The notes beneath the pieces were generated by a model. It saw only the letters and a list, made by a program, of their open reading frames with translations. It had not been told where the DNA came from and ran no database searches. The position numbers were made by a program, and so were the translations under genes. Shown here in pieces: positions 13,447 to 54,235 of a DNA stretch of 64,000 bases. Each line of letters opens with the position of its first letter. Positions within the stretch are counted from its first letter, which is position 1. The stretch is from Sarea resinae (taxonomy: Eukaryota), in contig JAPEUD010000004.1 of the NCBI GenBank assembly GCA_026026165.1, forward strand, positions 248,001 through 312,000, in the 5' to 3' direction.

Positions 13447-14847
13447 ATGCTGGTGTCATTGACAGTTGGCAAGGTCGACGCCGGTGTAGCCGTGTTACTG
13501 ACCGAGGACAAGAGATTGGTATGTCTTCTGCTCTCTGCCCTCTCCTTCCCCCTTTCACTCAATAGCAGTCTACCCCCACTGTCCTATGCCCTCTTTACTC
13601 GCGTTCACTTGATCTGACTGACTCGACTCAAACCCGTGTAGATCGAATTCCCCTCGATACTCCTGCCCCCAGACATCTCCTCGGGCTCCATCGTCGACAT
13701 CACTGTTTCGCACAATTTCGACTCCGAAGCCGCAACCCAAAAAGCCTTCAGCGCACTCCAATCCGAAATCTACACCACCTTCGGCACCCAAGCCCCAGCC
13801 GCCCCCGTTCTTCGCTGTCGCAATGCTACCCAGACCTCGGTCGTTCTCGAATGGGACCCCATCCAGCTCGCAGCTGCCGAGCTGCGTAGTCTGAGCCTCT
13901 ACCGCAATGGCAGCAAAGCCGGCAACATCCCCCGTCCGCACGAGCAGCAGAGCACCAAGATCAGTGGATTGGCGGTCGATCAGGAGTATGTGTTTCACCT
14001 GGTGCTCAAGACGTCGGCGGGTACGTATACGAGCGAGAAGTTGCATGTTCACACGCACAAGATGACGGATCTGTCTGGCATCACGGTCACGCCTGGCATT
14101 ATGCCTGCATCCCTACGCGAAAGTCTTGAGACTGCGGTGCAACGCATCGGCGCAAAACTGGTTGACACCGTCCGTATTGACACGACGCATTTTGTCTGCA
14201 TGGAAGGAAGGGGCCAGGCATGGGAAAAGGCCGTGGAATTGAATATCCCCGTCGTCAGACCGGAATGGGTCGAAGGCTGCGAGCGTGAAGGCCGTCTCGT
14301 GGGCGTGCGGGGATACTATCTGAACGCGGACCCGCGAATGCGGCAATTCGGCCAAGTGCAGCAGCAACAGCATGATGACAGACCGTCCAGCCAGGCCAGT
14401 TCACAGCGAACCGTTCCTATCCAGCAACAAGCCCAGCATCACCCACAACAGCCCTCGGAATCGCGACCATCTCGCTCCTCGCCGCAACGTCCCAGCGTCG
14501 AGCCAGCTCCTTCCGAAGCCTCGGACGAGCCAAAGGCTACAACCAACGGCACCCACGCTGAACCCACCTCTACTCCTAACACGCCTGCGCCCTCGCTCCC
14601 ACCCAAAGATACCCCTCCCACTGCAACGGCCACCGAGGCTCCATCCGACTCCTCGGACAGCAGCGAAGATCCCGACGAAGACGATGAAGAAGAAGACGAA
14701 ACCCATGAGAACGGAGATGCCACACCGCGAGCGACTGCTAACGCGACAGCAGCTCCGGTAGCCAAAAAAGCGCCAGTACGAGACGAGCCAACGCCTAGAG
14801 CAGAGACCACCGAGACCGGCGAAGGCTTCAGCGAGGTTTCCCTTTGA
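13447..14847 (+). CDS. CHS5: Exomer subunit / chitin biosynthesis protein Chs5 (FN3 + BRCT)
   Basis: MLVSLTVGKVDAGVAVLLTEDKRL|IEFPSILLP, RNATQTSVVLEWDP, BRCT (IDTTHFVC..PVVRPEW); intron about 13519-13641. Confidence 0.95.
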
Positions 14848-20659: not shown

Positions 20660-23291
20660 ATGTCTAAGGTGCAGTTGTTCTTAAGATCTTATGCCTTAAA
20701 GTGAAAAAAGCGTTGTTACTAACAAGTAAGAGTAGAAATATTAGAACAACACCTGCACTATATCTGCTATAACAGCTTAAGTGTGTAGAGGTAGGGTATA
20801 AGACGCGATATAGCGCGGTTGTATAGAGTCTTATACCCTATAATCGCCTTGTTTAATGCTTAGAAAGAGACCTAGCAACCGCGGCAAATATATCTGCTAG
20901 GACCTAAAAACATCTGCAGAGCAAGCCTTGTTACAAGCAGAGGCAATAGCATATAGTAACCTTAAGACAGATAACAAGCGGCAGATATAGGACCTACAGA
21001 ACAGACTCTAAGCGCTATATAATGCAGATAAAGAAGAACAGCTTATAGCAATCAACACGCTTATCTGCGCAATATATCTATATAGTAAGAGACTAGGGCA
21101 GCTAGATGCACTCTATTAGCTAATATATAAGAAGAAGGATCTCTTCCTAATTGCAAAAACCTTGTTTAGCAAGAGTATAATTATGCAGTCAATTCTATAC
21201 CTTGTCTGCAAGGCTATTATTCTTATTATTCTTCTGCTAAACAAGATTAGCGATAAGCAGACTGCGTAGATAAAGGAACTCACAGGTATAAAGCCTGTTT
21301 ATATAACAGGTAATAACAATAACTGCTAGTTGCTTAAGGATATCTGCAATAGCAATTATACACACATCCTAATATCGCTAGAACTTGTAGTTAGCCTAAA
21401 ACTAGAGCAGATATAGAAAGACATACAATTGCAAGAGCAGATAGCCCTTGTAGTATTAGATAAAGTTTATCTAGTCTTAGACTAGTCCTCTTTCTGCAAG
21501 TGTTATGCTAGTCTAAACATATTGCGCAGATTACTAGGAAACAAGCCCTAGTTTGCTTGCACTATAACGCTAGATAATGACACCTTTACAGAGGTATATT
21601 AGCTTGCTAGCTTTAACTAAGACGTTAGAATAATCTGCACATCAATTGATCGACCTAAGTTAGCTATTATCTGCAAACCTATGTCTTGCAGTAAGAAGAC
21701 GTCATTTAACTATCTATATTTCGTTATTAATAGCTTAACCTATAACAGTGCAGATATAGCTCTATTAGCAGCGGTTAGGTCAGAGGCTCTGTCTGCAGCA
21801 GGTGTGTTAGAGGCTATAGCGTTAGCTGCACTAGGCCTAGAATCTAAGAGGCCTACTCTGTAGCAGATTAAGAAGACAGCGATCTTTATAAGCAGTAAGC
21901 AGCAGCTAAAAGAGGCTCGCGATAAAGTCTGTAGATAGCTGCAGAACTGCAGATATTTAGCGCAGTTAGCAATGCATATAGTTGATGTGTATCACTCTAC
22001 CCTTGCAGAGAAAGACAAAGAGCAGATGTAGGACGAATATTTAAAACTGCACTTAAGGATAAGGATCCTCTTCTACTCTAATGCGGTTGCCTAAGGCGCA
22101 GACATAGCAGATATTAAACAGGTAGTTTATTATAGCATCTTCTGTGATTGCCTCCTAAGCTTAGTGTAGCAGCGTTTTAGCTAAGCAGCGCGAGGCGTTA
22201 ATTAGAAAGGAGAAGCAATCTTTCTTGTTAATAAGTAGTGCAGAGGGCCTAGGGTGCAGATAAGAACAAGAAAAGGTGCAGAGGTTAGTAGTTAGCAGTC
22301 ACAAGTGTAGAGATCTACTGCGCAGACATCACTAGCATTATCTTAGCTAAGCCTACTAAGTTAAGATCAGACCTGCTTAGATAGCAATAACTCTAATAGA
22401 ATAAGTACTGATTCTATTGCATCTTCTGCTGTATTAGCAGATGCTAACGCGGTTAATACAGACATCGAACAGCAGACAATGTAAGAGCTAAGTCCTAAGG
22501 GCTTGCATTTCATTATGCCTGCTAAAGTGCAAGGTTCTTCTGCAAAAATAAAGCGCTAAAGTGCGTATAAGCGGCGAGCAGATCTTCTTTGTCTGCTATA
22601 TGATTTTGCAAACAAAGATAAAGACTGCCTACGCTAGATCTTTATGCAGGCATTTAATAAGGATTTAGCAGATAATAACACTAAGGAACTAGTCCTACAC
22701 AGACGTTGCTGTTCGAACTGCGACCTAGTATTAAGGGTGCTAGATAAGCTAAATCTCGCGATATTTAGGTCCTATAATAAAAGGCCTTCTACAAATAAGT
22801 ATCTTGCCGCTTAGATTAACCGCTAGATGTTAGAGTAGATGCAGACAAAGTACAAGGATATAACTTAGGTCCTAGTGCTAGGATGTGTGATATTAGAGGA
22901 CGTTATAGAGCAGATATATATGTAGAAGACTGGTATTTATAATGCAGAATCGTTGATTAGATGTGCAGAATAGGATAGTAGGCCTCTAGACAAGTCTGAA
23001 CTAGGCGCGTTAGCAGCCTGTATCTGTGCAGATAATTTGACAACTGAAACTTATACCTTAATATCAGCTATAGCTGACTTATCTCTTCTAGCAACATCTA
23101 ATATATTAAGTTAGCTGTCTGATTCGCCAGCAATTAGTCGTTCGCGTTATAACTCATAAGGTAACACGTTGTCTGCTACAGTAGACAGGTTATATAAGAG
23201 ACATCAGCCCTTAGCAGATGCAGATATAAACATTCACCTGCAGCTAATTTGTGCAACAAAGAAACCACATTTCCGCGCTATTAATAGGTGA
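20660..23291 (+). pseudogene. RecQ-like SF2 helicase relic (RIP-mutated); boundaries approximate
   Basis: Translation through stops gives LIAKTLFSKS (motif I), VVLDKVYLVLD* (DExH..W), FACTITL (motif III), CTSIDRP, YHSTL, GADIADIKQVV, QRFS*AARG (motif VI) and CCSNCD (RQC zinc). Confidence 0.85.
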
Positions 23292-24026
23292 ATGCGATTC
23301 GAACAAAGAGCACCTTGTCTAATTAGTCTGCTTATATTTAGCAACTAACCTTAGCACCTACCTTTAACTTCTAACTCAACTTCTTATAATTATATTATTG
23401 TCTTTACCTAGTTATACTAATTAATATTAACTATCTCTATTGTAACTTTATTGCTCTTATCACTTCTAATACTAGTTATAGCTAGTGGATCAGATAATAG
23501 CAGAGATAAGCTAGCTAAGTATGTTAAAGCTGTCGCTAGTAGTTAAGAAGGCACCTTAAGGCCTATGTAAGTAATAACTTCTAACTAACCTTAAGTCCTT
23601 TAACTTAAGATTAGTCTTACAGCAGCATATGTTAGCTGTAGTTGCTAACCTCTATATAGAGAGGAACTAGTTTAATCTGCATCTGCTGCTATTAACGCTA
23701 GGTAAGTGATCTTACTATTAGCTAACTGTTATCTTTCGCGTTAAACGCATAACTATATTAGCTGCTGTTACTAACCTCTATAAAGTGAGGGTATAAGCTA
23801 GTCTGCGTCTGCTATGTAAGTGATTTGACTGTTAGCTAAATGCTGTCTCTTGCTGTTATATGCATATGTATATCAGCTGCAATAACTGACATATTACAGC
23901 AAGGATCTATTTGTATTTCTGTCAGGTGACAACAGTTATTGTTCGCGTGTTAGAGTGATAACACAAGACCTGCGTTGTAGAGACACACCTAAACTGCTCT
24001 AACCTCTGCAATTCTAGCAATTCCTT

Positions 24027-25263
24027 ATGCAGAGAGTAGGAACAAATCCTCTAGCAGATAAGACATTAGCTGAACAGACACTAGCAGATAAGACATTAGC
24101 AGAGATACTAGCAGATAAGACACTAGCAGAGGAGACACTAGCAGAGGAGACACTAGCTAAAGAGACACTAGCTAAAGAGACACTAGCTAAAGAGACTACT
24201 ACAAATACGCAGAGAGGTAAGAAATTACAGAAGCTGCTATCTAGGCTAGAAGGCTCCTAAAATAGATTAGACTAGATGTTAGACGCATCACCTAAACAAG
24301 CAGGTTTGTCTGCAGATCTATCTGCGCCTTGTAATTGTGTACAGTCTTGATTCTTTAACAAGCAATAGTATATCTATAAGCCTACGACTCTAGATTAGCT
24401 AGCGTGTGACTAGTCAGTATAGGACAGCCTTAGAGGAACTTGTTAGAAGGCCTACGCCTATGCAGATCTAATTATAAACGATCTATACTAGGGAGTTAAA
24501 CTGCAGACAAAGTGTGAACGCTGCCTTAAGAGAGGATTAAGTTATAAGGTTTACAAAAATGAGCCTAAGAAGGCTATAGTAAAACCTAGAGACAGCTGCG
24601 CTAGTTGCTAACAAGCTAGCAAGCTGTGCAAATTCAATATTAATCTGTCTGCAGGTGATTAGGTTTGTATATCTGCTAGGCAGATAATCTAGATAGCTGA
24701 CGCAGTTGTAGGGGCCTTAGACACTACAGAATACAGTCTGTGCCTCTAGTAGAATTAAAGACAGTTCTAACAAGAAATCGCAGAAGCGTAGGGCTGACAC
24801 ACCTGCTAAAGAGAGTTATCTGCGCCCTAGCAAGGTATGTTTAACACAGATATGCATATCTAGTAGGAGCTAACACGTTATACAGTCACAGAAGACAAGG
24901 GATCTAACTAGGCTTAAGGACATTAAAGCAGAAGAGGCTATTATTAGCTCTACACCTGCTGCTACATTATCGCCTACTGCCTTTGTTTGTGAAAGACTCT
25001 ATACCTAGCGCGCTACGTCGTCTGCTAGCCCTCTCTATAAGTCAGCTGCCACTGTTAACAAACGCGTCTGCAGCCTTCTCTAGCCGTGTAATGCCCTGCG
25101 TAATGCCCTGCTATCTGCCTCTACTAAAGCAGGAAACGCGAATAACGCTAGTATAGCAGAAGATATAGCAGAGTTGCAATCAGAGGTGACCTTGTTAAGA
25201 GCAGACGTTATAAGGCTATCTGCAGATGTCTTAGAAATTCTGAATTACATCTGCTAAAGGTAG
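24027..25263 (+). pseudogene. Transposon accessory gene relic: pentapeptide repeats, Zn2Cys6-like cluster, C-terminal coiled coil
   Basis: TLA(D/E/K)(K/E) repeats; CERCLKRGLS[Y]...CASC*QASKLC near 24513-24629; intron-like segments about 24655-24710 and 24835-24885; IAELQSEVTLLRADVIRLSADV near the end. Confidence 0.6.
24051..24198 (+). repeat. 15-bp coding minisatellite (~10 units, ACACTAGC..AG.AG)
   Basis: Seen directly; encodes LADKT/LAEET/LAKET repeats. Confidence 0.9.
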
Positions 25264-25409
25264 TTTAGCTAGATAGAGTAACAGCAGCAGTTATATAGTT
25301 AAGGGTAATTGTGATAAGGGTGTTTATAGATACAATAGATATTGTTAGTTGCGTTCGCAGTTGTTTGTTTAGTTGAATGAAATTTCAATGTTAATACTCT
25401 AATGATCTA

Positions 25410-28125
25410 ACACAATATCTGCCTATAGGAGCGATATAATAGGCATTGTATTAGGATGTCTGCTAAACAGGTTAAGCATTAAATGCCTAGGGTCTTCTGC
25501 ATTAGAGTTATAACTGTAAAGCTACAGATATACACTTATATTAAGACCTACTAACGCCTCTATAACTTGTTAGTCTATATCGTTATTATCTGCCTTATCT
25601 AGATCTATATATCTGCTACTTAACGTAGGCAGTCCCTTTTCAGCTAGCTGTATAACACCTAATTGCAATAATCCTAGTGCTGTGTAAGCAGATCTCTTGT
25701 CCTTGCAACAGATAATAGAGTCTTAAGCAATTATATCTGCAAGACTCCTAATATCTGCTGTAGCAGATCTGTTAGTATAAGATGTATTAATACGTTCTCT
25801 GAATGTAAATTCAAATTGAGACTGCAGCAGAGCAAGATAACTAGTCATTAACACTAACTACTTAAACAAAGCTGTCACATTAAGAGTTGAATTACTCTTA
25901 GTCTGTAGAATAGTCTTTAGCTATAGATTAAGAAGTTTATTTATCTGATCAACTTTAAAGAAGGTCTCTAGTTTATTATAGTTGCTGACTAGACTGTTTG
26001 CAAGTATCGCCTGCTGCAGACAACGATCACATGTTAGTGTAGATATTAGCTGCTATAAACAAATTATCTCCTGCAAATAGTTGTACAACCTGCTTCTGCT
26101 AAAGTAAAGACAACTGCAGGCAATTGCATAGCAGAGCAATCTAATGTCTGCAGATTTAATAGCATGCCTTAATGTTAGGTATATCTTAACGTAGTGCATA
26201 AAGCAGATATAGTTGAAATACTCTGTATTATAAGGCAGATGCTGCTGTTTATGCGTTTGTTTATGCTTTGAATCCCTTGTAGCGTTATCTGCGCAACAAA
26301 TATCCGCCTTATATTGCGCTAGCTCTTAATAACTAGTAGTAGAGAAGGCGGTTTTACAGATATCCTCTATATAAGCAAGGAATTCTGCAGGAGTTAATGT
26401 GCAGAGAAATATGTCTAGTCAACCTAAATGCTGTCTTTTCTATGCACCTAGGAGTTTCGACAAGAATAACACAACAATCCTTGCCTAAAAGCTATGTTAA
26501 ACAAGCTCTTACTAATAGTAGAAGGGCGCTTTATCTGCAGGTATACTCTAACAGCTAAGAAAATTGATGTGCAAATATAGCGTTGAATATTGCTAGAGAC
26601 TACTCTATCCTCTATAGTGTGATCTAACAATTAATGCTAGAAGGTTTATCTGCATGTAGAAGAGGCTAGGTACAGATAATATCTAGTCTAGGCAGTTGTA
26701 TCTATCTGCTGCCTCTAATTGCTTAAGCTAATATAAGCGGATTAGGCTTGCTGTTTTCTAATCACTAAATACTAATATTAGCTGCTTTTTAAAGTTAACT
26801 GTGTCCTTCCCTAGCTGACTAGCGAATATGTTGTCTAACACGTTATACGTGCCTATAGTAGAACCCTCTGACTTAGTGATTAGTCTAAGGGTAATCTGCT
26901 TAGTCTGCTTGTGCAGAATAACGTTAAGGGTTAGCATTTGCAGAAACATAAGGGTATCTGCAGCGAAGATATTATTAATAACATCTAGATATGCCGCGCA
27001 GATAGCACTAGCTATAAAATATGTCGATATCTGCGCCTATATGTTATCTATCTAATTTCTGTCTGCAGCTAGAAGATCTATTATGTCTACCTAAACGCTA
27101 GGATAAAACATATCTTGTGTAAGTCTGCTGTCTAGTAGGCATTGTCTGTGTAATAGTTTTCTAGTCGTGTATAAATATAGAGTTCCTATATAACTAACTA
27201 ATTAATGCTGTGTTTTTGCGTGCCACTCGAAATTATTATATACAACTGTGTAGTCCTACGTCTGTGCAGCAGAGCAGATAGCTATCTTTAGTTAGTTAGC
27301 CTTCGAAAATAACAGCGTTTAAGGACTACGTTCTCTGCTTTGTTCTAATATCTGCTGTTTCTACGCATCTAATGTGCGATATCTATCTACTAAGCCTAAG
27401 CTATAAAGCATGCTTAATCCTCTCTAGGTTAGTCTAGAGTCTTTTAAATATAGTCCTAGTATGCAGGCAAAGCAATTCATTGTCTTTTGCGCATATCTAA
27501 GACTAAGTATAGATACAGTCATAACTATTTGTCTATTGTCTGCTAAGTACATTGTCTGCTAATGTTTTGCAACATACTGCGATTTAGTAGCTCTGCTAAT
27601 AAGATATAACAACCTAGGCGCGATGTTCTTAATTTAGTCTGCAGAGCTAGCTAAGTTAAGTGTCTTAAAGTCTGTCTCTTTATTATATTAGCTAAGCAGC
27701 AGACAGTGGCTTTGTAGCTAGTCTAGATCGCTGCAGATAAGAGCGACACTACTGTTAATAACTGCAACTAGACCTCTATCTGCAGTTTGCAAGAGATAGA
27801 CAATGTCGTTAAACTAAAGGACTAAGTTAAGAAGGGCTTTTTAATGCATTGACTGTATATAACCTTAATCTTCTTCTAGATAAGCAAGCTAGATCTCTAT
27901 AAACTTAATAGGCGATAACCGCTACTCTTATAGCTTTGTTAGGATAATATTAACCTTTTCCTTTGTAGATAGTCTATTAGATACTAATATTAGTTGCTTA
28001 GATTAACTATTAGTTAAGGTAGGCGTTGTAGTTGCAAATGTCTGCAGTGTGATTAGTGCAGTTAGTGCAGATATAGTTGTTGTCCTACAACGCTTCCTCT
28101 AACTAGACAGTTTCTTTACAGACAT
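25410..28125 (-). pseudogene. DUF6589/Academ-type transposase relic (RIP-mutated); boundaries approximate
   Basis: Translation through stops gives ILGLYLKDS, VYNNFE, EGSTIGTYNVLDNIF, LVFSD*KT (GDQKT), LD*ILSVPSLFYMQINL, HSF*ARI, YLTLRHAIKSADI, LQQAILANSLV and FFKVDQINKLLN. Confidence 0.75.
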
Positions 28126-35088: not shown

Positions 35089-35859
35089 TCACGCGGCGCC
35101 CTCTTTTCTCTGGCCGGTCTGTACTCGGGTAAAAAAAGACCAGTCAGCGCGATTCCAGCTCGAACGAGACATCTGTTTCAAGTCCCTCACAGGACGCGGA
35201 AAAGTCCGAAACAGCCCCCCAAAAGAGGGGCAGAAAAACACTCACGTAAAAGCCCAGGCCGTAGGTCGGCGTGGTAAAGGTGATCTTGCTGCCCTTGGGG
35301 AAATAGAAGACGTCGCCGGCGACGGCGTGGACCTTCTGGCCCGTCTCGTCCTCGATGTCGAACTCGCCCTCGACGATGATCTTCATCTCGTGGTAGGTGT
35401 ATTCGTACACGAGGGGCGTGCCCTTTTCTAGCCGGTAGAAGCCGGCGCTGATGGGCTTTTCCGCGTCGTAGGTCTCGCTGTTTGTGTGGAGAAGAATGGA
35501 TGTTAGTGGGTGGTTGGGAGATGAGGGTCAAAGGGGGTGGAAGATGCTTGATAGATGGTGTGTGCGTGCGCTGTGAGGTTTGGTTTGGTGTGTTTGGTTT
35601 GGTTTGGTGTTGGGGAAAGGAATGCAATGCGGAGAAGGCAAAGGGAGACGAACCTTGTAACTACGTCTCCTAGGAAGGCATTCTCGTTGGCAATCAATGG
35701 CGGCTTAAAGGTCGACTGGGCCTTGGAGAAGTGCTTGAATGCTAAGGGGGTGGAGGAGCCCATCTTTTCGGAGGCTTTGGGCGGAGAAGTAGTAGCGGTG
35801 GATGGAGCGGCTTTGGAGGCTTTTTTCGACGAGGTGTGTCGTGAGAGGTATGATCCCAT
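35089..35859 (-). CDS. EutQ-like cupin (ethanolamine utilization protein family), 3 exons
   Basis: PPLIANENAFLGDV|..KPISAGFYRLEKGTPLVYEYTYHEMKIIVEG...AGDVFYFPKGSKITF..GLGFY|TGQRKEGAA*. An alternative ATG lies at about 35763. Confidence 0.88.
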
Positions 35860-37751
35860 CGGACGCCTTCTCCGGAATTCAGTTCAATCTGTGGTGATCT
35901 CGTGGCAATTGAGGGGGTGGAGAACGATTCGTGAGGAACTCTGGCTGGTTTCAATGGCAATCGCACCGATGAAGTCAAGTGTATCAAAGAGCTCAAGTCC
36001 AAGTCTGATATTCTCGTCGGAGCGCGCTCGGCGCAGCTCTTTATACGCCCTCTCTCGCCCGGCAGCCATGGGCCGGACGACACCTCAAAAGCTCCACAAG
36101 ATCTAGTCCCCTCCCCGCTGACAGACTGATTGATCATTCTGTCGCTGGTCCATCGAATCACGACTCCGACTCGCTCGGCGAGCTATGAGAGAGACCCTGC
36201 CCCAGGGTCCTGGAGCTCTCTGATTCTTTTCCTAGAGAGGATCAGATAACCATAGCTGTGGGCTCGGGGGGTCGATGATGTGGTAAGCGGTGGATCACTT
36301 TGCTGCTCCTGGTCCTAGTGCCCGGTAGGGAGCGTGTGGAGCGTATAGCGACGACAATAATGAGGTGCGAGGGACGTTATCTACGAAGTATTACAAACAA
36401 CGTCCGGAGTCGATCCCCGACACTGCGTAGGCGTAAATCATCATCATCGTCATTGCTCTAGTCTTGCGGCATTAGGATCGACCTGGTAGTAGCAGATTCG
36501 CCATTCATATCGCCATTACTGTCATGAACAACAGCTGGTCGAGATTCAGCTAGAACACGGATCGAATGGGCGCTTTGTTCAGACAGACGTTGACCATTGG
36601 CTCTACGTCAGGAGGGAAAACAATGCCGTTTACGGAAAGGTTTCCCTTCCCCCCTTCCCCCTCCTAGACACCACCACCATGGCACTAAGATAACCAGCGC
36701 CACCAGATGGGGGATTTGCACCGGGTAACCGAATGCGGGGCTATCACTGTTGCGCGCTCCATTCATCGGCGAGGCGCCCCAAAGGTTCGGCCCGGCGACA
36801 ATGGCCAAGATAAGGTGAGGGAGCTGGAGGTCAGGAACAATAATAGTGAGGCATGAATCCAAAATCGACAGAAGTGAGCATGCACACCGTGCAATAATAC
36901 CAAACCGAGGAATAAGCTGCTACGTGCTACAGAGTGCCATGTGCTATGAAGTGATGACCAGACGGGAAAGGGCCGAGCTTGTACGCTTTCGGCTTGAATG
37001 CACGAGATATATTATATCTCCCTTACTCGGATCTACAGACGAGAACTCTATCCACGGCCCATGGATCCAGGCGAGCGACTTTCAGCTCACTACCCTTTCC
37101 AGCAGTCAGGTCCCCCCCAAGCGGCGCCTTAATCCTTACGCACATATTTCTACCTGGTCCGAGAGGGATTGCGGTACCTACACGCAGCTCACCCGCTCGC
37201 GTTCATTGGATATTGTTTCTTTCGAGTGCGCACGTAGAACTTCGCGCAGTAAACAATAATAACGAAGCGACTCCGATAACAATCAGCTCAGTATATGGCG
37301 TGACATGATCGCCATTCTGGAGATAATCAGCTCAGCTCACTTCAGCCCTAAACAAGACACGACATCTGTGCCCTGAGCGCAAGGTTCGAAGGTATAAATG
37401 AATAGTCGAGCGCAAAGCTCTGTGCCTTTCTCTCCCTCGACGCTTGCTAGTCCATTGCCATGCTCGAATCTCTCGCCGTCCTGTGGTCCCAAAAGAAGAA
37501 AATAAAAACGCCTCGGGCATCTCATCCCAATCGCCAAGCCAATCAGTACCCATTGCATTGCCTCGACCAGCACTGACTCCTCGCTCCGACTCCAACGCTC
37601 AATCAAAGAAATACACGAAAGCCCAAGTAGAGCATGGAAATCTCTAGACATATCTAAAAACGAAATCAACGAGCCGTTCTCACCCAGAACCACATATCGC
37701 TCTTCTATCAGATGACTCGACCGGAGAAATGAATTGACGCTTGCAGTGTTG

Positions 37752-40401
37752 TTATCCGAGAAGAACTGGATCAATTCAATTAGCATAAATGCATTTTCGC
37801 ACAATCAGAGACCGGAAACTTGCCTTCCCACTTCCAGTCTTCCATGACACCGACCCAATGCATCCTTCCTCGAACGGTCATGCCAGGATCCATAGCCTCA
37901 GCAGAAATATCGGTTGACCGCCTTCTGCCCTGATTTGTATGGGGTTTGGCAGGCATTCCCAGGCCCTCATTCGTCGCCCGTCGCTTCGATCTCCCGAAAG
38001 AGGTCGTCCAGTTGATCAGATCATGCTCTTCATCTTCCGCCGTCAGTGTTCGCTTCACACCTTTCATCAATGGAGCACTGTCGAACATCATCGGCGGTAA
38101 TGGAGCATGACGCCTTCGCTGCCTTCTTTGACTGGTTTTGTGGGCATCTCGACGATCCCAGACTTCCCTGACGACATCCAGGCATCGATCGATGACCCCG
38201 ATGAGCATTCTTTGGCCCATCATTTTCCATCGGTACTCGACCCATTGACGGTCCTCCTGGGTAGATGCCTCGCAACCAGCAGCAAGGAGCGGATATATCT
38301 GCACAATAACCGCCCGTGAGGCCAGGGGTACAGTCGCCAGATACACCAGGACCCTTTTAGCAAGCTCTGAGGAAGACTCGGACGGGATCTCGGGCACCGC
38401 TTGATGCAGATATAGCAATGTCGCCCAACGGTAGGCTTCAGCAGTCTGCAGACTATGTTGGACTTCGGAAGTAGGATCTTCTGGCTGATTGAAAAACGAC
38501 GGAGGTCTCCACGTCTCAATGGATGACTTTAGTTCTATGGCTTGAGAGACGACGGCAGCGGAATTGCTCTCGCTTTTCCGTACGCGACGGACGAGGTTTG
38601 CAACGCGCCCGATAAGGGGAAACAACGTGCTCGCACATCCCATCAAGGGATCAACTTCTGAATTTTCCGAGAAGCTCACACCCGGCGAGGAAAAGACGTT
38701 GTCGAAATCATTAGACTCGTCAACATTGATCGAGGTTAGTCGCGCAATGACATCCATGTACACCCAAGTATTGCAGAGAAATTGGAGGCGCTTTAGATCA
38801 TCTCCACCTAGGTGAGCCTGTTGATGCTTTGCCAATGCCTGATTGACCAGAATTCTGGCCCCTCGAAGGTGCTCGATGCCAGTAGAGATATGTTGGTCCC
38901 AGGACTCGGAAAATGCCAGCACGAGCGTTGTAGCGAGAGCAGTATCTGTTCTCATGTCGCCAATGCCACTAGCTAAGTTGCTGATGCTTCGCCGCATATG
39001 CTCAATGCCTTCAACCCGCAAGGAGTGTCTATACTTAGATGTATGAAATGCCGTCATTGAAGATATTGCATGATAGAGAGCAGGCGAATCTCTCGCAAGT
39101 GGCCAGATGAGGGTCCGCCAGGGGTTCTCGGTGGGGCCATCTTTGACTGAAAGAATTCCACAAGTTTGCCTGTCAAAGCGCAGCATGAGCATCTCCGGAC
39201 TATGTGCTTGAAAATCCGGCTGCCTGTACAATGCGTTGAAGGGATCGGATCGAACTGATCCTTCAGAAGAAACTGATGATTCTGAGGATGTCGGTGATGG
39301 CAATCGCACAATCCAAGAATCAGGGGTAGGTCCAAGGTTCCGAATAACTTCCTCGACCTCCTCACCCGGCATTTCATGCTGATGTTGAGATTGAGGCTCT
39401 TCTTGCATGTCGATCGGAGGCTGCTCCAAAGGGGCTTTGAACAGGTTAAGCGAGGCCAAATCGAAGTCCGGGGGGAGGAGATCAGGGATCCGGGATGGCT
39501 CCGATGGAAAACTTGACGTCGCAGTCGTTGATGACAGGACGCTCATGTTATCGAAAAGAGAATCGATTGTACTTGTAGCCGAGCTTGGCTGGAAATCCTC
39601 TGGACCAGAAGCCATACTTTGGAATGATTGACCGGGACGCAAATACTCCGATTCTTCTAGTGAGAATATCCCTCCCATTTCAGGGAACGGCTGGTTGTGT
39701 ATTGCATGGTGGGAGGTCGACTGCGGGAAGGGTATTTGCAAGCCGACTTGACTTTCTCGAAGTAGGCTCAGATCCGTGCCACTCGGACATGCAGCCTCAT
39801 CAGAGAACGAAGGACTCCTAGGCCTTTTATTCTGTGCTCGTACTGGTCTGGTCGATCCGTTCGAATCGAATGCTATCTTCGTCAACAGAAGTTCCAGCGT
39901 GGTTTTCTATTGAACAAGCTCACCCTTCTTTGTCTTCGTCGGTGCTGCCTTGCCAGTGAAGCTCGCTTCCTCAAAAGGCCGCCATTTGAAGTCTTTCTTA
40001 TACCCTCCGCACGTCACGCTGCGCTTGTGGCACTGCTGGCATGAAGGCTTGGTCTCATCACATTTGAGTCTTTTCGCCTTGCATGTGATGCACCCTATAT
40101 TTTCAGATGACTCAATCAGCTCCTGCGCGACGAAGATATTGAAGCCAAGATGATGCGATCAACAATAGGCTTATCTTGCCCCAGATAAGACGGTCAAAGA
40201 CGGAATGAACAAACCATTGCGACTCTTCGATTGCTTCGGCTTGGCTGCACTGTTGTCCTTCTTGGTCTCGTTCGGAGACGTCTTGGTATTCGTCGGCGAG
40301 CGTTTGGGTGCGGCTTCAGACCTCGGTCTCGGAATCCGCGCCTCCACCACCACCGGAGATCTCAAGAAAGCTGACGGCGAGGGGATCGTAATGGCCTCCA
40401 T
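37752..40401 (-). CDS. acr-2: Zn2Cys6 transcription factor, Acr-2-like, with fungal-specific TF domain
   Basis: KSRNG|CITCKAKRLKCDETKPSCQQCHKRSVTCGGY, SVKDGPTENPWR, VDPLMGCA, and C-terminus HWVGVMEDWKWE|VLLG* via a GC-AG intron. Confidence 0.88.
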
Positions 40402-43400
40402 GTAATGGGCGCACGGTAAGAAGTCCACCACACTGATCACAGTTCAGAGCATTTGTATTCTCTATCTCAATGCGGAATCGTAGAAGAGAGACAGAGACGG
40501 GCGGTGTTGCTGCTGACGATAATGGTGTTTGAGCGTGGTTGAGCAGTAAGAAGTCAGGCCGGGCAAGGCAAGTATGTACAGTAGTTTAGGTAGAGTACCT
40601 TGGTCGAGTAGCATGGACCGTGTTATTGAGTACCGTGTCCGGTGCGTGTTTGGTATCAGCTACAAGCAATCAGTGTGGAGAAGATGCTCTAACACGAGTC
40701 GAAATGGATCCAAGTTGATAACATCAATTTAGTGTAAGGCTACACCGTAGACACCGCAGACACCGTAGGCGAACGAGCGCCGGCCGAGTTAGACGGGGCG
40801 CTGGGGGCGCTGGAGGCGCAGAAGCGAGGTGTCGGATATCAAAAGCGAGCGATGTTATTGGGAGCGTGGGAGCGATGAGCAGGGTGGTACGAAGAGCAAC
40901 CCGAATCTCCACGATGCGAGCCAGGGCCGTTGCTGCGGCCGGTGTGCAGTCGTCAGTCGTTTGGGGAACTTGGATTTGGGGCTGGCCAGTGACCGGCTGG
41001 ACCCTGTCCGCCTCCAAGGTATCCCTTCAAGGTTCCGCTCCCTCTTCCGAAGATGCCGACTCCGGCTCGGTGTTTCTCGTGGACGGGAGAGTACAGATAC
41101 AGCGCAATGGAAGTGTGTTAGGTATGAGATGTGTATCTGATCGTGCACGACCTCGCGCTTGGAGAGATCTCGACCCTACTCTTACAGAAGGAAAAGCAAG
41201 GTGGATGATATCAGCCAGAGACCCGACCGAGGACAGCGAACCTCCCCCCCCTCCCTACGCCACAACCGATGGATGCATCTGACGGAGCAGCGACTTCATG
41301 AAGAGAGATGACCAAAAGAGCAAATGCAAGCTGAGGTCGCGAATCCGCAGAGACTGTAGATTGCATGGCAGAGACATTCTGACACACATATCCGTACACG
41401 CACCGCACACGGCTACCGACATATTACGATGCGGCCACTCCTCTTCTTCCTCCCTGGTCTTTGACCTCGTCACGACCAGGATAGATCAGCCAAAGGAACA
41501 GTGGGAGCGAATTGCAATCATGGGAATCTTCCAAGCAATCGGATGGAGCAGAGTGCGACACGGCAAGCCACAGCGGAACCGAACGTCTCTTCTTCCGTGG
41601 ACCGTGATAAGGTGTGGAGGGCGAGAGAGAGAGAGAGAGGCAGAGAGAGAGCAGAGGAGCACTATGTGTTTGCATGAAGCAGCTGGAGACGAGGAACAAT
41701 CGATCAATCGATCAATCAATCATCCGTCACCCTTCAGCCATGACGAAGTAGAAGATACATTGATCCCATCCTACCTGTACTGATCGACGTCGCCCACGTT
41801 CCAATTCAGCCGAAGAGATGGAAGCGTCTGCACCAGAGAGCCCTGGAGATTATGACTCTCGCTGAAGATTAATGCAATCAACAACGTACCAAGTACGAAG
41901 TACCCTCCTCTATCTATTCCGCACTATGGTAACTTCGTCCCTACCTACCTAAGGTACCCCTCCCCTCCCCTCGCTGCCCCGATCATTCGCCTAACACCCT
42001 GAATGCCCCTAACACCCCTACCCTGCCTCTTCGTCCCGCCCCTACGCGAGTCACGCCCCATGACGAGAGACGGCTTCATCTCCACCGCAGCGAAGGTCCC
42101 TCTGCTATCTCGCAGTCCAGGCCGTACCAGCTGCGGTCTCGGGAGCGCTAAGCACGAGTGATCGTACACAGTACACCTCACAGTACGGAGTACACAGTAC
42201 ACAGTCCATCCTGAGGTTCGGATGCAAGCTGATGACGAGTGCCCGGTTGAAGGTGCCCGGGCAGTATCAGTGGAGGGAGCGATTGATCCATTCAATTCTC
42301 TAGGGTACGAGAGTTATCGTCAACGGATGGACTGGAGCTTTCCAATGGCTCCTTCGCCTCCCCACTTGATCCGCTGAGTATCCATGCTTACATCAAGTCC
42401 ACCCAGCCATCCATCCATCAACCATCTATCTGTCGGACCGACGCCCGTGTCTGCAGGAATGCCTGATCACGGAGCTGTGTGTGTAGCTTCCCTACCTACC
42501 TATACCTACTACCTATCTTGCCTACCTCACCTTTACCTGACCCAGGCGCGTGTGTGCTCACTTCCGCAATCACGGCCGATGGGCCGGAGGGGAAAGCGGG
42601 CAGGTCTTCGTTCGTACTAGCTATGTGAGAGGCCTTAGGTAAACAAGGCGGCCATCGCACATGGATGATATCGATAGATGCCCGCGCGCCTTCCGGCAGG
42701 GACTCTTCGTTCGCGTACGGCGGACGTCCAATAGATATCGAGTTACCTGGACCGTCCGATATTCATTCACATCAATACTTGCAACATCCATCTTTCCAAA
42801 TATGTACCCTAGCATGAGGAGGCGTCGTCCCTACGTGACTTCTACAGCCGGCCGACCTACATTGCAGATTCGTGTGAGAGGACTGAAGGGCATCGCGAGA
42901 AACATTGGTTAGGGGATGCATCACTACCAGCATCTGCCTGCTAGAGAGTTCGCTCTGCAACAGAATGATCGCATCAAGCCGAGCAAGCTTGATACGGGTT
43001 GCAGACGCAGGAAATGATGCTGTGAATCGATTCCCGTTCTTTTGTTTTCTGCATGTCGCCGCAGGTCTTACAATCAATTGGCGCGGCCGAGCCTCGCCAG
43101 ACCCAGATTAGGAACTGTCATCCATGAGGCTGAACCGGCCGATGGGGGAGACACCGCTTCACTTGCAGGCGTCTTCGCTACGACCAACATTGATGCTATT
43201 TCATACAAGTAGGAAAGGCATCGTATTCTGCCTAGATAGAAGCACATGGTTACTTGAAACTAGGTAGGTAGTATGCGAAGAGGTATCACATGAGAATTCT
43301 AAGAGATCGCTTGTGTTGATCGCAACGGCTCGGCAGCAAGGCACCCAGCCCCAGGCCGCAAGTCTTAAGTCTTGTTTGACTTGTCTGCCTAACGGGCTCG

Positions 43401-43407
43401 TGCGTGC

Positions 43408-45118
43408 CTACACCGTCTCGATGTATCTTCTTACCTCCCTGTAGCAAAGTCATTATTGTCAGCCTCTTGAAGCAACAAAGAAAGGGCTGAGTACTGACCA
43501 GTCAGTGACAGCTTCATCCCATAGGCGGATTTCATGCTCTCTGGTCCCACCAAAATGGTCGACGAAGTCGTCGCCAAACACTTCCCTCGCTATGCTTCCT
43601 TCTCTTGTGAACCGTTGGGTTGCCTCCTTCAATGACTTTGCAAGTCTGACTCCTTGATCGGAAGCGCTGCCAACATCCTCCCCTTTACCTAGAGGTGGTA
43701 TACTGATCTCGAGCTTCTTCTCGATTCCCCGGTAGCCCAAAGCAAGGACTGCTGCCAGAACCAGGAATGGATTAGTATCTGCGCCGGGAACTCTGATTTC
43801 TAGTCTTGTAGCCTTGGGACTCGCGGTAGGTGGCGCGATTAGCCGGATCGAGGCTGCGCGGTGTTCAAGACCCCACGAAACCGTCACTGGCGCCCAGAAG
43901 TTCTCGACGAGACGCTTATATGAGTTTACAGTCGGTGCCAAAATTGGCATGATATCTGGTAGTCCTTCCAAGACTCCTGCCAGGAAGTGGCAGCAGGTGT
44001 CAGAGACATAGGCAAGATCTGGATACTTTGCTTGCTCATTCTTTTCACTGCGGGAGAAGATGTTTTTGCCTCCTCCGTCGACCAGAGAGACATGCATGTG
44101 TCCGGAATTGCCAGGCAGACCTTCTCTTGGTTTGGCCATGAAGCAAGGAGTTATTCCAAATTTGCTACCCACTGACTTGACGACATATCTTGGTAGGAGG
44201 AATCAGTATAAGAGCTCTTTTGATTTTTCGGTGCGGGCCAACTGACTTGAAAAGCGTTGCCTTGTCTGCCATTTGCTTAATCTCGCCATATTCCAAAGCC
44301 TGGACCAAATATTTGCGTTAGCCAAATGTGGTAGGTACAGCTCAAGTCCTCTGAATCGACTTACAGCTTCGAAGACGCCCGGACCACTTTCTGTATGCCA
44401 TCCTTCGATACCGCAATTGAATTTCTCACAAGCATCGTAAACCCCATAATAATATTCCTGGTTGTGCACTGGTCGGGTCAAGCTGTAGCCAAACATGCCT
44501 TCTGTCAGAGACGGCAATGAGTCCACAGGGTTCTCTCGCAGGAATTTCGCTGTCGATGATGAGTTTCGCTCGGAAGTAGGCCCGTCGGTTTTGGATGGCG
44601 CTCGAAATTGAAAGAATTCGTATTCAGCTGGGACAATGGCACTGTCAGTCTCTAGGCGGGCTAAAAGCACTGCGCTGGAAGTGGAGGAGCAACTCACCTC
44701 CAGCCATCGCACCTAGTCCCATTTTACTGAATTTGTCCGAGGCGGTTTTGAGCAAGCCTCTAGGACAGGCGCTGAGAGGAGCTTTGGTGTCGGGGTCGAA
44801 GAAGCTGAGAAGGAAGAAAGGGACATTGTCTTCCCAGGGTATTCTCCTGTAGCTGCTGAGGTCGGGCACGGCGATGATGTCGTGGTACCCATTCTCCTTG
44901 TTGCTGATCTTGAGCTCTTTGAAGTATGTCTGGTCGTGCATGTCCCAGCCGAATATGACAGAGCAGAAGCCAAAGCCATCCTTAGCAACAGAGAGGAATT
45001 TCTTCTTCGACATCAGCTTCCCTCGAAGGACGCCATCGATGTCAACGCCGCCGACTTTGACCTTGGTGTCGTTGAGCAGGAGCTCCGGTAGAGCGTCTGC
45101 AGTGATTGAATCAGGCAT
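43408..45118 (-). CDS. Glutamine-synthetase-I-like ligase (GlnA4/PauA-type gamma-glutamyl-amine synthetase candidate), multi-exon
   Basis: DIDGVLRGK, HTESGPGVFEA, FMAKP..GLPGNSGHMHVSL, PTVNSYKRL..FWAP, EHRAASIR, RLEIRVPGADTNP, and AVTDW|EVRRYIETV*. This is not the eukaryotic GSII sequence type. Confidence 0.9.
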
Positions 45119-46738
45119 CGCGAGAATGAGCGAGCTGGGGAAGACAGCGATTGGCCACTAAGGTAAGGGTTTCGAGATGAATCTTAGACAGAGGAACCCT
45201 GATCTTGCAGGCAGAGCGCTTTGCACGTGTCCAGATAGATGGTGGGGAAAGTTAAAGTCGGGCCTGGAATGGTTGATCTTCGACCGTTTGAGTACGGTAC
45301 GGCTTTGCTACGACGCGCACGACACGGTTCACGATGCTTCCCCTTGGAGCAGAGAGGGGAGAGAGCTACGAGCTTGTTATCAGCTGCGTCGTTTGACGGT
45401 AAAGGCGCCACCAGTGGGAACGCCGCCGATACCAAGTGGTGGCAGCATCATCCGAAACAAGAAAAAGCAACGAAACTCACATCGCCATGAGGTTAGATCG
45501 GGCGTTTCCTTGCATCGCTTATCGGCGTCACGAACCGTATTTGAATTGTCCCTCACGTCGCTTCGCAGGTTCTCACTTCAACTTCAACTTCAACTTCAAC
45601 CTCAACTTTCTCACCTCAGCAGTTCGGCCATAGGGTTACCGGAGGGATCAAGGGAGCTTTGGGCATGGATCTTCGATACGGCATCTCTGAGCCTCAATTA
45701 TACCTCACCTAGGATAGCTCCAGCTCAGCGGCTGCAGCCTCAGCCTCAGCCTCAGCTTCGAGCTTGTACCGCCAAGCCTGGGCATTCTTGTATTTAGCCA
45801 AATGACAATATACTACTCCCATCGTCTCGTCTCGTCCCTCTTCCTATCACTTACTCCTGCTGTTCAATTGCCTCTCGCTCCACCCTTGGCTTACGAGGTG
45901 TCGAGGACACCACCGAGAGAGACGCTCATCCATGACCTGCTCGCTCTACTGTCCGGTAACGGAGGGGCGATAATCTCGGATTGGCGTCCTTATCTCCCAC
46001 TTCCAGATCTCCAGGATGGAGCTGCCCCACGGAGGGCGGGCGATCAATGGATCAATGGGTCGATGGGTCGATAGGCCCAGGGGCCAATGACTCAACATGC
46101 AGATTGGGCGGTGAACTGTTGATAGCTGCCCCTCCTTCAACATAGCTGAGAGTACGTTCCTAGGGTCCATCCGTCCTTCGGGGCGGATTGACTCGTAATA
46201 ATCTCACGACTACCCACCAAATGGACGGCGCCCCGGAGCCTTCAGTGGATCTAGGGTACGGTGATTGCGGTACTACTCATAGTACGCTCCTCATCTATGC
46301 CAGCTATCGTTAGTGTTACCCACTCTATGCTCCTTCAGTCGGTACCTTCAGATGCTGGCGCCGAACTCTCAGAGCCCTTTGTAACGGTCGGTATCGGACC
46401 GCCTGCTTGATTGAATCTTCTTATCGGCACGCGATCGCAACTTCACGATTTCCCATTTCACACCTTGACAGCAACAACCTGAAAGGAAGGCGTCTGATTC
46501 TGCACGCAATCAAGTAAGTGGCCATTGCTATCCCAGAGATCGATGATGGATGACGCATGTGATGTGTGCAACGTCCAAGAGGTGACGAGTCGACGATCAA
46601 GCGAGCCCTAACATCTCAGAGCTACGCTGGAATTGCTTGCGCAGTGATGATAACATCATGTCGCCACAGATCTTTCCCCGCACGGACACAAAAGACGAGA
46701 GTTATCGTCAGCTACATCAACACTGTTTTTAAATCAAC
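45119..46738. promoter_or_regulatory. Divergent promoter with multiple HGATAR (AreA/NIT2-type) sites
   Basis: About 11 HGATAR matches found by eye on both strands (45233, 45377, 45519, 45968, 45990, 46069, 46120, 46304, 46421, 46648, 46702). Confidence 0.5.
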
Positions 46739-48183
46739 ATGGGACGTCTAGAAGGGAAGAATGCTGTGATCACGGGAGCGGCAGGGTAAGTAAAAGCACA
46801 AATTCATCTAGTCATAATGCTTTCGTTCCTTTTGGCTTGTCGTGTCTTTCTGTTTGGTTTCTTTTTGCTACAAGGCGGTTTGTTTGTTTGCTTATGAAGT
46901 GCTGTCTCTCCTTTACCAGCGACCGCAGGTCTCCTGTTTTCCAATGTGCTTACCTGAGAGCTCTAAGATAAATAACATATCACCAGCTTTCTTTCATATT
47001 CTTACCTTCAGTTCTTACTCTAGCATGTTTTTCATGCCAATGGTGTTCGATGTTTATCTAGATGGTATTTGGCATTTGTCCGCTGCTGTTCTTGTCGGAT
47101 TATCCGCGACTTCCAAAGACCTTTGGGCTGATCATATCTTCTTCCTTTTTCACAGAGGCATTGGCCTTGAAACGAGCATTTTGTTTGCCCGTGAAGGCGC
47201 TTCTATCCTTATGACCGACATCTCCGCGCCGGCGCTCGAGAAAGCCTTGGCGAAGGTGAAGGAGCTTGTTCCCAATGCCCCCAAAGTCGAGACCGTCATT
47301 TGCGATGTTTCCAAAGAAGCGGATGTTGCCAAGGCCGTTGAGAAGCTAGATTCCTGGGGCGGGCTCGATATTATCTTCAACAACGCTGGCATCATGCACG
47401 CTGATGACGCTGACGCCATTGACACCCCGGAGAAAATCTGGGACCTGACTCACAATATCAACGTCAAGGGCGTCTGGTACGGTAGCAAGCACGCAGTGCT
47501 GGCTCTCCGCAAGCACAAGAAGGCCAAGGGGAGTATCATCAACACTGCTAGCGTGGTGGCTCTTGTCGGCAGCGCAACGCCTCAACTGGCATATACGGCA
47601 AGCAAGGGGGCCGTACTAGCCATGACTAGGGAATTAGCCATCGTGCATGCCCGAGAAGGTCCGTCTTGAATCCCCCATTTCACAGCATAGAAAAGGGCTG
47701 ATGAGAAAATAGGATATCGTTTCAATGCTCTCTGCCCTGCCCCACTCAAGTAAGCCACTGTCTCTTTCCACCGCCAACCTCCAAGCGACCTCCCTTTCTC
47801 CATCATCCCCACTAATCATGCGTTCGACTTCAGCACCCCACTCCTCCAAGACTGGCTTGGCGACGACAAAGCCAAGCGCCACAGACGTGAGGTGCACTTC
47901 CCGAGCGGGCGCTTCGGTGAAGCCATCGAGCAGGCGCAAGCCGTCCTCTTCCTCGCCAGCGACGAGAGCAGCTTCATCAACGGCACGGATTTCGTTGTTG
48001 ATGGCGGCATGACCAAGGTGAGCGCTCTCCGAGGGCATAGTGTCTTTCCTTTCACATGCAGCAGTGGAGAAGACTTTACGAATTCGTAGAGAGAGAAAGA
48101 GATCTAATGCCTCTGGTGATCACTAGGCATACGTCACCCCCGAGGGTCCACCCACCGCGGCGCCGTCCAATCTGGCTCGGTAA
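46739..48183 (+). CDS. Short-chain dehydrogenase resembling actinobacterial glnA4-linked SDRs (5 exons)
   Basis: MGRLEGKNAVITGAAG|GIG, FNNAGI, NTASVVALVGSATPQLAYTASKGAV, RREVHFPSGRFG, FVVDGGMTK|AYVTPEG. Confidence 0.92.
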
Positions 48184-52407: not shown

Positions 52408-54235
52408 CTACTCGGTCACATACAAGTCAACATACTTATCAACGTCCATCTCCTCCAGCCTCTTGGCGTCATCACCCAGCTCCACTAATTCCTGAACCCG
52501 GCTCTCAGGGAAATGAGGCCCAAGATGTCTCTTGTACTTGGCCAAGATCTCCGGCTTAGCCTCTTCTCTTCTGGTCTTATGACCCAGAGGCGCTTCCACC
52601 ACGACCTCCTCATATGTCGATCCGTCCTTGAGATGGACAGTGAGAGCGTTAGGGATGCTTCGCTGGCTCGGGTCATGGTAATCCTTGGTGAATTGAGGGT
52701 CCTCGACGCAGCTGATGCGCTGGCGAAGGGATTCGACTAGAGGTGAGGTTGCGGCTTCGCCACCATCAGTGTAGTCGGTAGCTTCAAGTCTGTTGAACAC
52801 CAACATGACCGAGACCATATACTGATAGAAAAAGGTCAGTTGAGTGAGATCCAGTCAATTTGTGGCTAACGCACCTGAATGCAATGGTCGCGGTCTGCAA
52901 AGTTGTCCATCGGCTTGAATTGCTTGTCGATGATCCGGACGCAGGCCTCATGTGTCCGAATAGTGACATCTTGAATGTCTTCAGCAGATTTTCCCTGTGC
53001 CTTGAGCTGAGCGTGGATTTTCTTCGCTGCCTCAATGGCAGTTTGGGAATGAAATTCGGCTGCAACAAAGGTGTCAGACAGGTCTCGAAAATTGATAGGC
53101 CGAGCAGACTTACCTGGATAAGAGACTTTAAAGAGGACGTTCTCCATGACATAGCTGCCATAAGGTCTTTGGAAATCGAACTTCTTGCCACTGAAAAGAA
53201 CGTCGTAGAAGCCCCACGTAGGTGCCGAGAGGATAGTTGGCATGCCTCCTTCGCCTTTCAAAACCTTCAAGACGAGGTTGACGGCCCTTTCGCACGCGTC
53301 ACCAGCAGCCCAAGATTTCCTTGACATTGTGTTTGGCGAGTGTCGATACGTCCGCAAGCTCTGGCCATCAACAAAGGCTTGAGTGATTGCGTCTGCGGTT
53401 TGCAATTCCGAAAGACCCATCATCTTCGCTGTAACTGCTGCAGTCGCTACCTTCACGAGCAGAACATGATCCAAACCGACCTTGTTGAAGGAGTTCTCCA
53501 GAGCCAGACATCCTTGAATTTCGTGTGCCTTGATCATAGCCTCGAGGATATCTTTGATCTTGAGCACCTTCCCTTGCCCGATATTTCCTCCGGCTCGATT
53601 GGTGCGAGAGATCCAATCTGCGACTGCCAGGATACCCCCGAGATTGTCAGAAGGGTGTCCCCATTCGGCTGCCAACCAACAATCGTTGTAATCAAGCCAG
53701 CGGATCATTGCTCCAATATTGAAGGCACCCCGAACAGGATCCAATTGATATGGGGTACCGGGTACGCGAGTACCATGCGGGACGACGGTGCCTGGTACAA
53801 CAGGCCCTAGGAGCTTTGTGCATTCCTTGAATCGGAGAGCTTCCAGACCGCATCCTAGCGTATCCAGAAACACAAAACGAGCCGTATCAAACTATATTAA
53901 ATATTAGGCATTTCATCATGAATAAGCTGCATCAAGGTACACTCAAGACGTACAGCGAGATCAGAATCGACTTTATAATTGTGAACGTAGCCCGCGATGT
54001 CCTTGATCTCCGGATCGTACTCCTTTGGCCCCGAAGGTGCTGGTGCAGACGAGTGCAGAGCAGACATGGTGGAAAATGGGGCAGACGCTGGCGTGGAACG
54101 AGCTATGATCCTTGGCCGGGCGTTGACGTTGACAGCTAAAGGCGAACGTAGGAGATGTCGAGAAGGGCAGCCAAGAGGCTTCTGCCGTAGCTGTCTCGAG
54201 GCTTTGCGGCAAAGACTGCTGCTGAGTGATGACAT
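52408..54235 (-). CDS. PDH1: Mitochondrial 2-methylcitrate dehydratase (PrpD/Pdh1), 4 exons
   Basis: Presequence, [65 protein letters not shown]. Confidence 0.96.

Follow-up and report, generated by a model that had tools for sequence, protein, structure and literature searches.

The question raised by this stretch of the Sarea resinae genome (contig JAPEUD010000004.1, positions 248,001 to 312,000; these 64,000 nucleotides are hereafter the window) is why a gene publicly annotated as a glutamine synthetase (GS) stands head to head with a gene for a short-chain dehydrogenase/reductase (SDR), with genes for an EutQ-like cupin and a Zn2Cys6 transcription factor nearby. Gamma-glutamylation of amines is a bacterial strategy, and ethanolamine catabolism in filamentous fungi is poorly defined. 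On the excerpts of the papers that we cite here by PubMed Central number, the published bacterial pathway consists of a ligase, a gamma-glutamylethanolamide dehydrogenase, an aldehyde dehydrogenase (ALDH) and an amidohydrolase (PMC6529630; PMC10132767). We propose, with a rough probability of 0.6, that the GS-like ligase and the SDR, which share a single promoter rich in GATA sites, catalyse the first two steps of a gamma-glutamylation route for an amino alcohol in fungi, the substrate most likely being ethanolamine. The pair is best read as a putative fungal mosaic variant of the known bacterial gamma-glutamyl ethanolamine pathway.

The four genes that the preliminary description had placed here are real: models built from the coordinates have GT-AG introns throughout and closed frames, and each product matches its expected Pfam families (Table 1). 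The limits of the interval, 35089 and 48183, are the stop codons of the cupin and SDR genes, and the start codons of the divergent ligase and SDR genes lie 1,620 bp apart. The largest ligase exon is 100% identical to protein P0001 of an NCBI-named Sarea resinae metagenome-assembled genome (MAG), in which the SDR carries the next locus tag (M1819_004114 for the ligase, M1819_004115 for the SDR). At 43408-43498, that public ligase model (488 aa) runs through the last intron and ends in unrelated residues; the spliced C-terminus, ...DWEVRRYIETV, agrees with homologues. Spliced RNA-library contigs (run X2) confirm the last ligase intron and all four SDR introns at the predicted junctions, so both genes are transcribed; the same contigs leave most of the ligase gene uncovered, which says nothing on expression.

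We compared the ligase with models of its superfamily and found that it falls well outside the true glutamine synthetases. The full protein matches Pfam Gln-synt_C (PF00120, 2.4e-81), and its best-scoring NCBIfam model is GlnA (TIGR00653), against which it reaches 221.4 bits, below the cut-off of 429.15; it also lies under the cut-offs for type III/GmaS (186 versus 470 bits) and PuuA (161 versus 650 bits). Its best full-length PDB match, 5dm3 (153 bits, low identity), is presumably a Chromohalobacter enzyme, and the representative sequences P0241-P0259 are ligase homologues at 45-57% identity. Aligned to Salmonella GS (1f1h), the ligase retains equivalents of H269, H271, R321, R344, E357 and R359, and the E-x-E and H-x-E...E motifs are invariant in our ligase alignment (A2). 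The flap residue Glu327 of 1f1h, in contrast, is replaced by Trp (NSYKRLVENFWAP versus NSYKRLVPGYEAP). This Trp is present in 119 of the 120 listed fungal homologues and in each of the 84 sequences matched from the nearest bacterial clade, and actinobacterial SDR-linked ligases have Phe or Trp in the flap. Loss of the flap Glu separates amine ligases from GS, as with Phe331 in GlnA4 and Trp296 in PauA7 (Krysenko 2019, PMC6529630). Because it scores below the GlnA cut-off and has Trp in place of Glu327, the Sarea protein is, judged by its residues, an amine-ligase-type relative of GS and not a true glutamine synthetase, in agreement with the preliminary assignment as a GSI-like ligase.

We found that the SDR accompanies this ligase across the filamentous ascomycetes. 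When metagenomes were scanned with 24 aligned fungal ligases, 79 loci were obtained, 73 of them fungal. An SDR gene lies beside the ligase in 28 of the 31 fungal loci with more than 3 kb of upstream sequence (26 divergent, 2 on the same strand), and a partial SDR is found at the contig edge in 12 of the 42 loci with shorter flanks. When loci at least 90% identical were merged into lineage clusters, the SDR was present in 25 of 28. Best matches to named proteins place the pair in at least five classes (Sordariomycete-, Dothideomycete-, Leotiomycete-, Lecanoromycete- and Eurotiomycete-like) as well as in deep unnamed lineages; by locus tags, the two genes are adjacent in Sarea, Pycnora and Cirrosporium and on different contigs in Aulographum. 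The other flank of the ligase is variable and therefore serves as an internal control for this linkage. A dienelactone hydrolase (DLH) gene is found downstream in 14 loci (10 lineage clusters), mostly Teloschistales-like, and an ALDH gene adjoins the pair in 5 fungal loci (5 lineage clusters), directly after the ligase in four of them and beyond the SDR in L018, where the order is ALDH, SDR, ligase, hydrolase. The ALDH that the pathway would lead one to expect is thus absent from the window yet stands next to the pair in other fungi. The ligase-SDR linkage is conserved across distant lineages, as in a fungal metabolic gene cluster.

The SDR points to the same pathway, with bacterial affinities of its own. 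It matches Pfam adh_short (7.2e-32) and adh_short_C2, and its best PDB match by a wide step is 4wec (1.9e-61, 211 bits, versus 141 bits for the next best), which we take to be a mycobacterial protein; their alignment contains the C-terminal motif RR.VH.P.GRF ... VDGG ... AYVTP. Matches at E<=1e-50 and 45-56% identity occur in 108 of 401 genomes from the phylum of an Acidimicrobiales MAG (105 of 398 when three unpublished genomes are left out), nearly always one per genome, compared to best matches of just 31-38% identity in five genomes of other phyla. We took 20 of the actinobacterial SDR regions with 9 kb on each side and found a GS-like gene within about 7 kb of the SDR in all 20 and an ALDH gene in 18, the commonest arrangement being GS-ALDH-SDR on one strand, which matches the published order SCO1613-1612-1611. 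The resemblance to SDRs of glnA4 clusters, which the preliminary description had pointed out, is borne out because these close actinobacterial homologues, 46-56% identical to the fungal SDR, adjoin GS-like and ALDH genes; the comparison was with actinobacterial homologues at large, a set that does not include SCO1611 and Rv2857c themselves.

The relatives of the ligase lie elsewhere among bacteria. Searching one genome of each prokaryotic species gave 80 loci, the nearest bacterial relatives at 40-47% identity, from Burkholderiales, Bacteroidota, Myxococcota and Bdellovibrionota and from one Acidimicrobiales MAG. We added six intronless metagenome relatives, clustered the open reading frames (ORFs) around all 86 ligases and searched representatives with Pfam. 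An iron-containing alcohol dehydrogenase (Fe-ADH) gene lies directly downstream of the ligase in 62 of the 86 loci, and the neighbourhoods further include ALDH (47/86), a Peptidase_C26/GATase (PuuD-like) hydrolase (40/86) and, upstream of the ligase, an amino-acid permease (26/86); the sole SDR match among them has 33% identity. By analogy, this operon layout is that of published ethanolamine gamma-glutamylation, and because an alcohol dehydrogenase stands in the operons of the ligase's relatives, the substrate is probably an amino alcohol. The ligase does not group with GlnA4: in a quick IQ-TREE tree the fungal ligases form a sister clade to the Bacteroidota/Burkholderiales clade, with long branches to the 20 actinobacterial SDR-linked ligases, to which the fungal ligase is 26-33% identical.

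Two further observations concern the bacterial loci. In some Bacteroidota, a second short GS-like ORF of 334-336 aa (L077:111-1115 and L107:6845-7852), comprising a beta-grasp and a partial catalytic domain, lies just upstream of the ligase, and L077 additionally has a gamma-glutamyl cyclotransferase-like gene.

Nitrogen catabolic genes under AreA/NIT2 typically have promoters rich in GATA sites. The DNA between the ligase and SDR genes was surveyed in 34 non-duplicate intergenic regions against shuffled sequence. HGATAR occurs 174 times, compared to 85.7 ± 8.9 in shuffles, and GATAAG occurs 60 times, compared to 14.3 ± 3.9. HGATAR density is 5.6/kb in the intergenic regions versus 1.65/kb in equal stretches downstream of the ligase, an imperfect control in that it contains coding DNA. 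The window has three GATAAG in its 1.6-kb intergenic region. This enrichment fits AreA/NIT2-type nitrogen control. Sites of the Zn2Cys6 type (CGG-N0-12-CCG) were not enriched in the same 34 regions. Separately, a 270-nt contig of the RNA library covers 45541-45816 of the intergenic region; it has a deletion of six letters, and its ends match loosely to low-complexity repeats. It may represent a long 5' leader, a different transcript or a repeat of another organism.

In the route that we propose, the ligase would couple glutamate to the amine with ATP, generating gamma-glutamylethanolamide, and the SDR would oxidise the free hydroxyl to an aldehyde. An ALDH, presumably encoded elsewhere in the genome and adjacent to the pair in some other fungi, would convert this to gamma-glutamylglycine, from which a hydrolase would free glutamate and glycine. 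Judged by the promoter, nitrogen control would act through a GATA factor of the AreA/NIT2 type. We advance more tentatively, at somewhat under even odds, a broader version in which most filamentous ascomycetes would possess a mosaic eukaryotic pathway for ethanolamine gamma-glutamylation. Such a pathway would combine a ligase of Bacteroidota/Burkholderiales type with an SDR of actinobacterial glnA4-cluster type under one AreA-controlled bidirectional promoter, would have been joined ancestrally to a dedicated Zn2Cys6 regulator and an EutQ-like cupin, and would be the main route turning the phosphatidylethanolamine head group into glycine and glutamate.

The case for including the cupin and the factor in this unit is weak. 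The cupin clears the Pfam EutQ cut-off (PF06249, 2.5e-12, 47.3 bits versus 21) and matches Cupin_3 (3.2e-9); over exon 2, homologues from different classes share 77-91% identity, and the family is automatically named 'ethanolamine utilization protein EutQ' or 'ureidoglycine aminohydrolase'. EutQ has an acetate-kinase role. PDB matches of the cupin are weak (3lwc, 4axo and 2pyt), and no relative at E<=1e-8 was found in 401 genomes from the phylum of a Rhodoferax genome, an empty result that proves little. The factor has Zn_clus (6e-9) and Fungal_trans_2 (5.4e-56) domains, and its matches in the Atlas are generic Fungal_trans_2 clusters only; acr-2, to which the preliminary description had likened it, is NCU05733, known via a gain-of-function allele (PMC6958467). 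It is the ligase-SDR pair that is conserved across Pezizomycotina; the factor and cupin together lie by the ligase in just 3 of the 27 loci whose downstream flank exceeds 5 kb, or 2 of 22 lineage clusters. In at least five named genomes (Chaenotheca, Helicocarpus, Parahypoxylon, Daldinia bambusicola and Durotheca) the cupin and the pair lie on separate contigs, no cupin was found in the 86 bacterial ligase loci or the 20 actinobacterial SDR regions, and the shared promoter lacks enrichment for the sites that a Zn2Cys6 factor might use. These data favour the explanation that cupin and factor are unrelated neighbours, that only the ligase and SDR form a functional unit and that chance in the local gene order accounts in part for the four-gene cluster, an explanation to which we give almost the chances of a coin toss. 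However, factor homologues at 42-45% identity stand next to cupin and ligase in the distant sequences L039/L062 and L041, whose ligases do not exceed 66% identity to any named one, and the tandem is kept there although inverted relative to the ligase as compared with the window. In a few named lichen-related genomes, locus tags put the cupin near the pair: directly beside the ligase in Sclerophora, at a distance of two genes from it in Vezdaea, and six genes from the SDR in Acarospora. In Ophiostoma piceae, an 'ethanolamine utilization protein' of unverified orthology to the cupin lies next to a C6 factor, both being induced on sapwood (PMC3680317). The cupin and factor are a tandem sometimes linked to the pair, and might perhaps provide an accessory protein and a pathway regulator.

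The possibility that the ligase is an ordinary ammonium-assimilating GS isozyme, with the SDR an unrelated neighbour, would account for its public annotation as 'glutamine synthetase' and for GlnA being its best NCBIfam model. We reject it as highly improbable, since the score is half of the GlnA cut-off, the flap carries Trp, the pairing with the SDR is conserved and the bacterial homologues of the SDR lie near a GS-like ligase in every one of the 20 regions examined. More serious is the alternative that the pair gamma-glutamylates another hydroxylated amine (aminopropanols, or something serinol-like), serves detoxification or homeostasis in place of nitrogen-source catabolism, or makes a gamma-glutamyl metabolite where we propose breakdown. 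Sequence does not reveal specificity, the fungal ligases form a clade apart from every characterised ligase, and identity to the best PDB match is low. Conservation as strong as that of the ligase, SDR and cupin, at 74-91% identity across classes, is also unusual for an optional catabolic route. We nevertheless consider this alternative unlikely, as both sets of bacterial homologues lie in operons of catabolic layout (permease, dehydrogenases, hydrolase) and as GATA-rich promoters point to nitrogen catabolism. FluG offers a fungal precedent for it, being a GS-like ligase for an unknown gamma-glutamyl metabolite (PMC6478659), but the only characterised systems with such an operon layout use ethanolamine (PMC6529630; PMC10132767).

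Several points weigh against an ethanolamine route starting with the ligase and SDR. We infer its substrate, each reaction and its regulation from gene structures, families, linkage and operon contexts, which are themselves observed. The ligase lies outside the GlnA4 clade, and at 40-47% identity to its nearest bacterial relatives their substrate specificity is not safely transferable. GATA sites are also used by other GATA factors, and the downstream control for their density is the imperfect one described above. The pairing has exceptions: three ample-flank loci (L005, L023 and L042) have no SDR, and the two same-strand loci depart from the divergent arrangement. No ALDH, amidohydrolase or DLH gene was found in the 64-kb window, in line with the preliminary statement that the aldehyde dehydrogenase and the hydrolase are missing from it. 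The DLH found elsewhere may reflect lineage synteny alone, because it occurs mostly in Teloschistales-like sequences. Finally, deletion of Magnaporthe MoGln3, a single-domain GS relative and possible, unverified orthologue of the ligase, left growth and virulence normal on standard media, in a study without an ethanolamine test, and raised glutamine (PMC8229676).

Table 1. Genes and promoter region of the ligase-SDR locus, in window coordinates
Feature	Position	Strand	Exons or sites	Domains and remarks
EutQ-like cupin gene, 123 aa	35089..35763	-	35763-35654, 35477-35246, 35118-35089	Pfam EutQ, Cupin_3
Zn2Cys6 transcription factor gene, 816 aa	37780..40401	-	40401-40215, 40094-39924, 39872-37780	Zn_clus, Fungal_trans_2; 3' end uncertain
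GS-like putative gamma-glutamyl-amine ligase gene, 485 aa	43408..45118	-	45118-44698, 44627-44365, 44299-44247, 44188-43499, 43438-43408	Gln-synt_C
Divergent ligase/SDR promoter region	45119..46738		GATAAG (- strand) at 45518-45523, 45989-45994, 46420-46425	
Classical SDR gene, 275 aa	46739..48183	+	46739-46785, 47156-47658, 47713-47749, 47834-48017, 48127-48183	adh_short, adh_short_C2

The surroundings of these genes contributed several observations of their own. No ORF in the 3-kb interval that separates the factor from the ligase has a Pfam match, and none has an equivalent among the 79 related loci. At the 3' end of the factor, at about 37780-37860, the sequence reads as a possible GC-AG intron (GCAAGT ... 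branch-like GCTAAT ... CAG) that would alter the last residues. An EutQ-like gene of unverified orthology to the cupin lies beside a peroxisomal copper amine oxidase gene near a nonribosomal peptide synthetase cluster in Scopulariopsis brevicaulis (PMC4624724, figure legend). The rest of the window holds housekeeping-type genes (MRS2, a WH1 protein, ERCC4, eIF1A, CHS5, a C5 DNA methylase, GH5, a SET protein, PrpD and malate synthase). PrpD (2-methylcitrate dehydratase, 52408-53891) lies within about 10 kb on the SDR side and is likewise found there in L026, L039, L049, L062, L064 and L068, with a SET-domain gene between SDR and PrpD in several loci; this is general local synteny and not pathway evidence. 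An AT-rich block at 20000-28000 (36-40% GC versus about 52% elsewhere) beside the C5 cytosine DNA methylase ORF (16845-18527) looks like a degraded repeat region of the repeat-induced point mutation type next to a RID/Dim-2-like gene. CHS5 (13642-14847) is about 28 kb from the ligase, and mis-fused public models of Teloschistes (P0038 and P0023) combine CHS5 with the ligase and a dienelactone hydrolase. The three seem to have formed an older neighbourhood, since broken up in the window by the AT-rich block, GH5, the cupin and the factor.

Our literature search found no paper describing the ligase-SDR pair or the pathway in fungi. The 'glutamylethanolamide' literature that it found alongside ethanolamine and fungi was all bacterial, and the excerpts of the FluG paper (PMC6478659) and of PMC4406744 contain nothing on the ligase. 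If our reading is true, a pair annotated as 'glutamine synthetase' and 'short-chain dehydrogenase' and conserved across Pezizomycotina would gain a function, and many genome annotations would be corrected because the proteins are not glutamine synthetases. The pair would also offer a clear and testable example of a bacterial-type pathway reassembled in eukaryotes out of components that differ in bacterial affinity, and a widespread fungal 'EutQ' protein would receive its first functional context.

Among known systems, the cupin resembles EutQ of Salmonella and Clostridium (PDB 2pyt and 4axo), whose chains it matches at 2e-6 to 3e-5 in addition to passing the Pfam EutQ cut-off; the similarity is remote, and the fungal cupin has no microcompartment context. 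FluG of Aspergillus nidulans is, like the protein described here, a fungal GS-like gamma-glutamyl ligase with an undefined substrate (PMC6478659). However, it is a two-domain fusion of an amidohydrolase and a GS-like domain with a developmental role, whereas the Sarea ligase is a stand-alone protein of 485 aa paired with an SDR, and we liken the two by description only. The Phaeobacter genes MED193_10026-10056 (PMC10132767) and Chromohalobacter Csal_0678/0679 follow the same four-step logic, but with uptake by a tripartite ATP-independent periplasmic (TRAP) transporter, in a bacterial operon, and with low sequence identity to the fungal ligase. The operons of Bacteroidota, Burkholderiales and Myxococcota contain the nearest relatives of the ligase, its sister clade with the flap Trp in every matched sequence, and differ in having an Fe-ADH instead of an SDR, a Peptidase_C26 hydrolase and no cupin. 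The Streptomyces coelicolor cluster SCO1610-SCO1615 differs in that the fungal ligase belongs to another clade than GlnA4 (SCO1613), and in that the fungal genes are divergent rather than in an operon, with ALDH and hydrolase unlinked in the window. In both systems, nonetheless, a GS-like ligase without the flap Glu stands beside a dehydrogenase, the fungal SDR is close to the SDRs of actinobacterial GS-ALDH-SDR regions, and the predicted chemistry is the same (PMC6529630).

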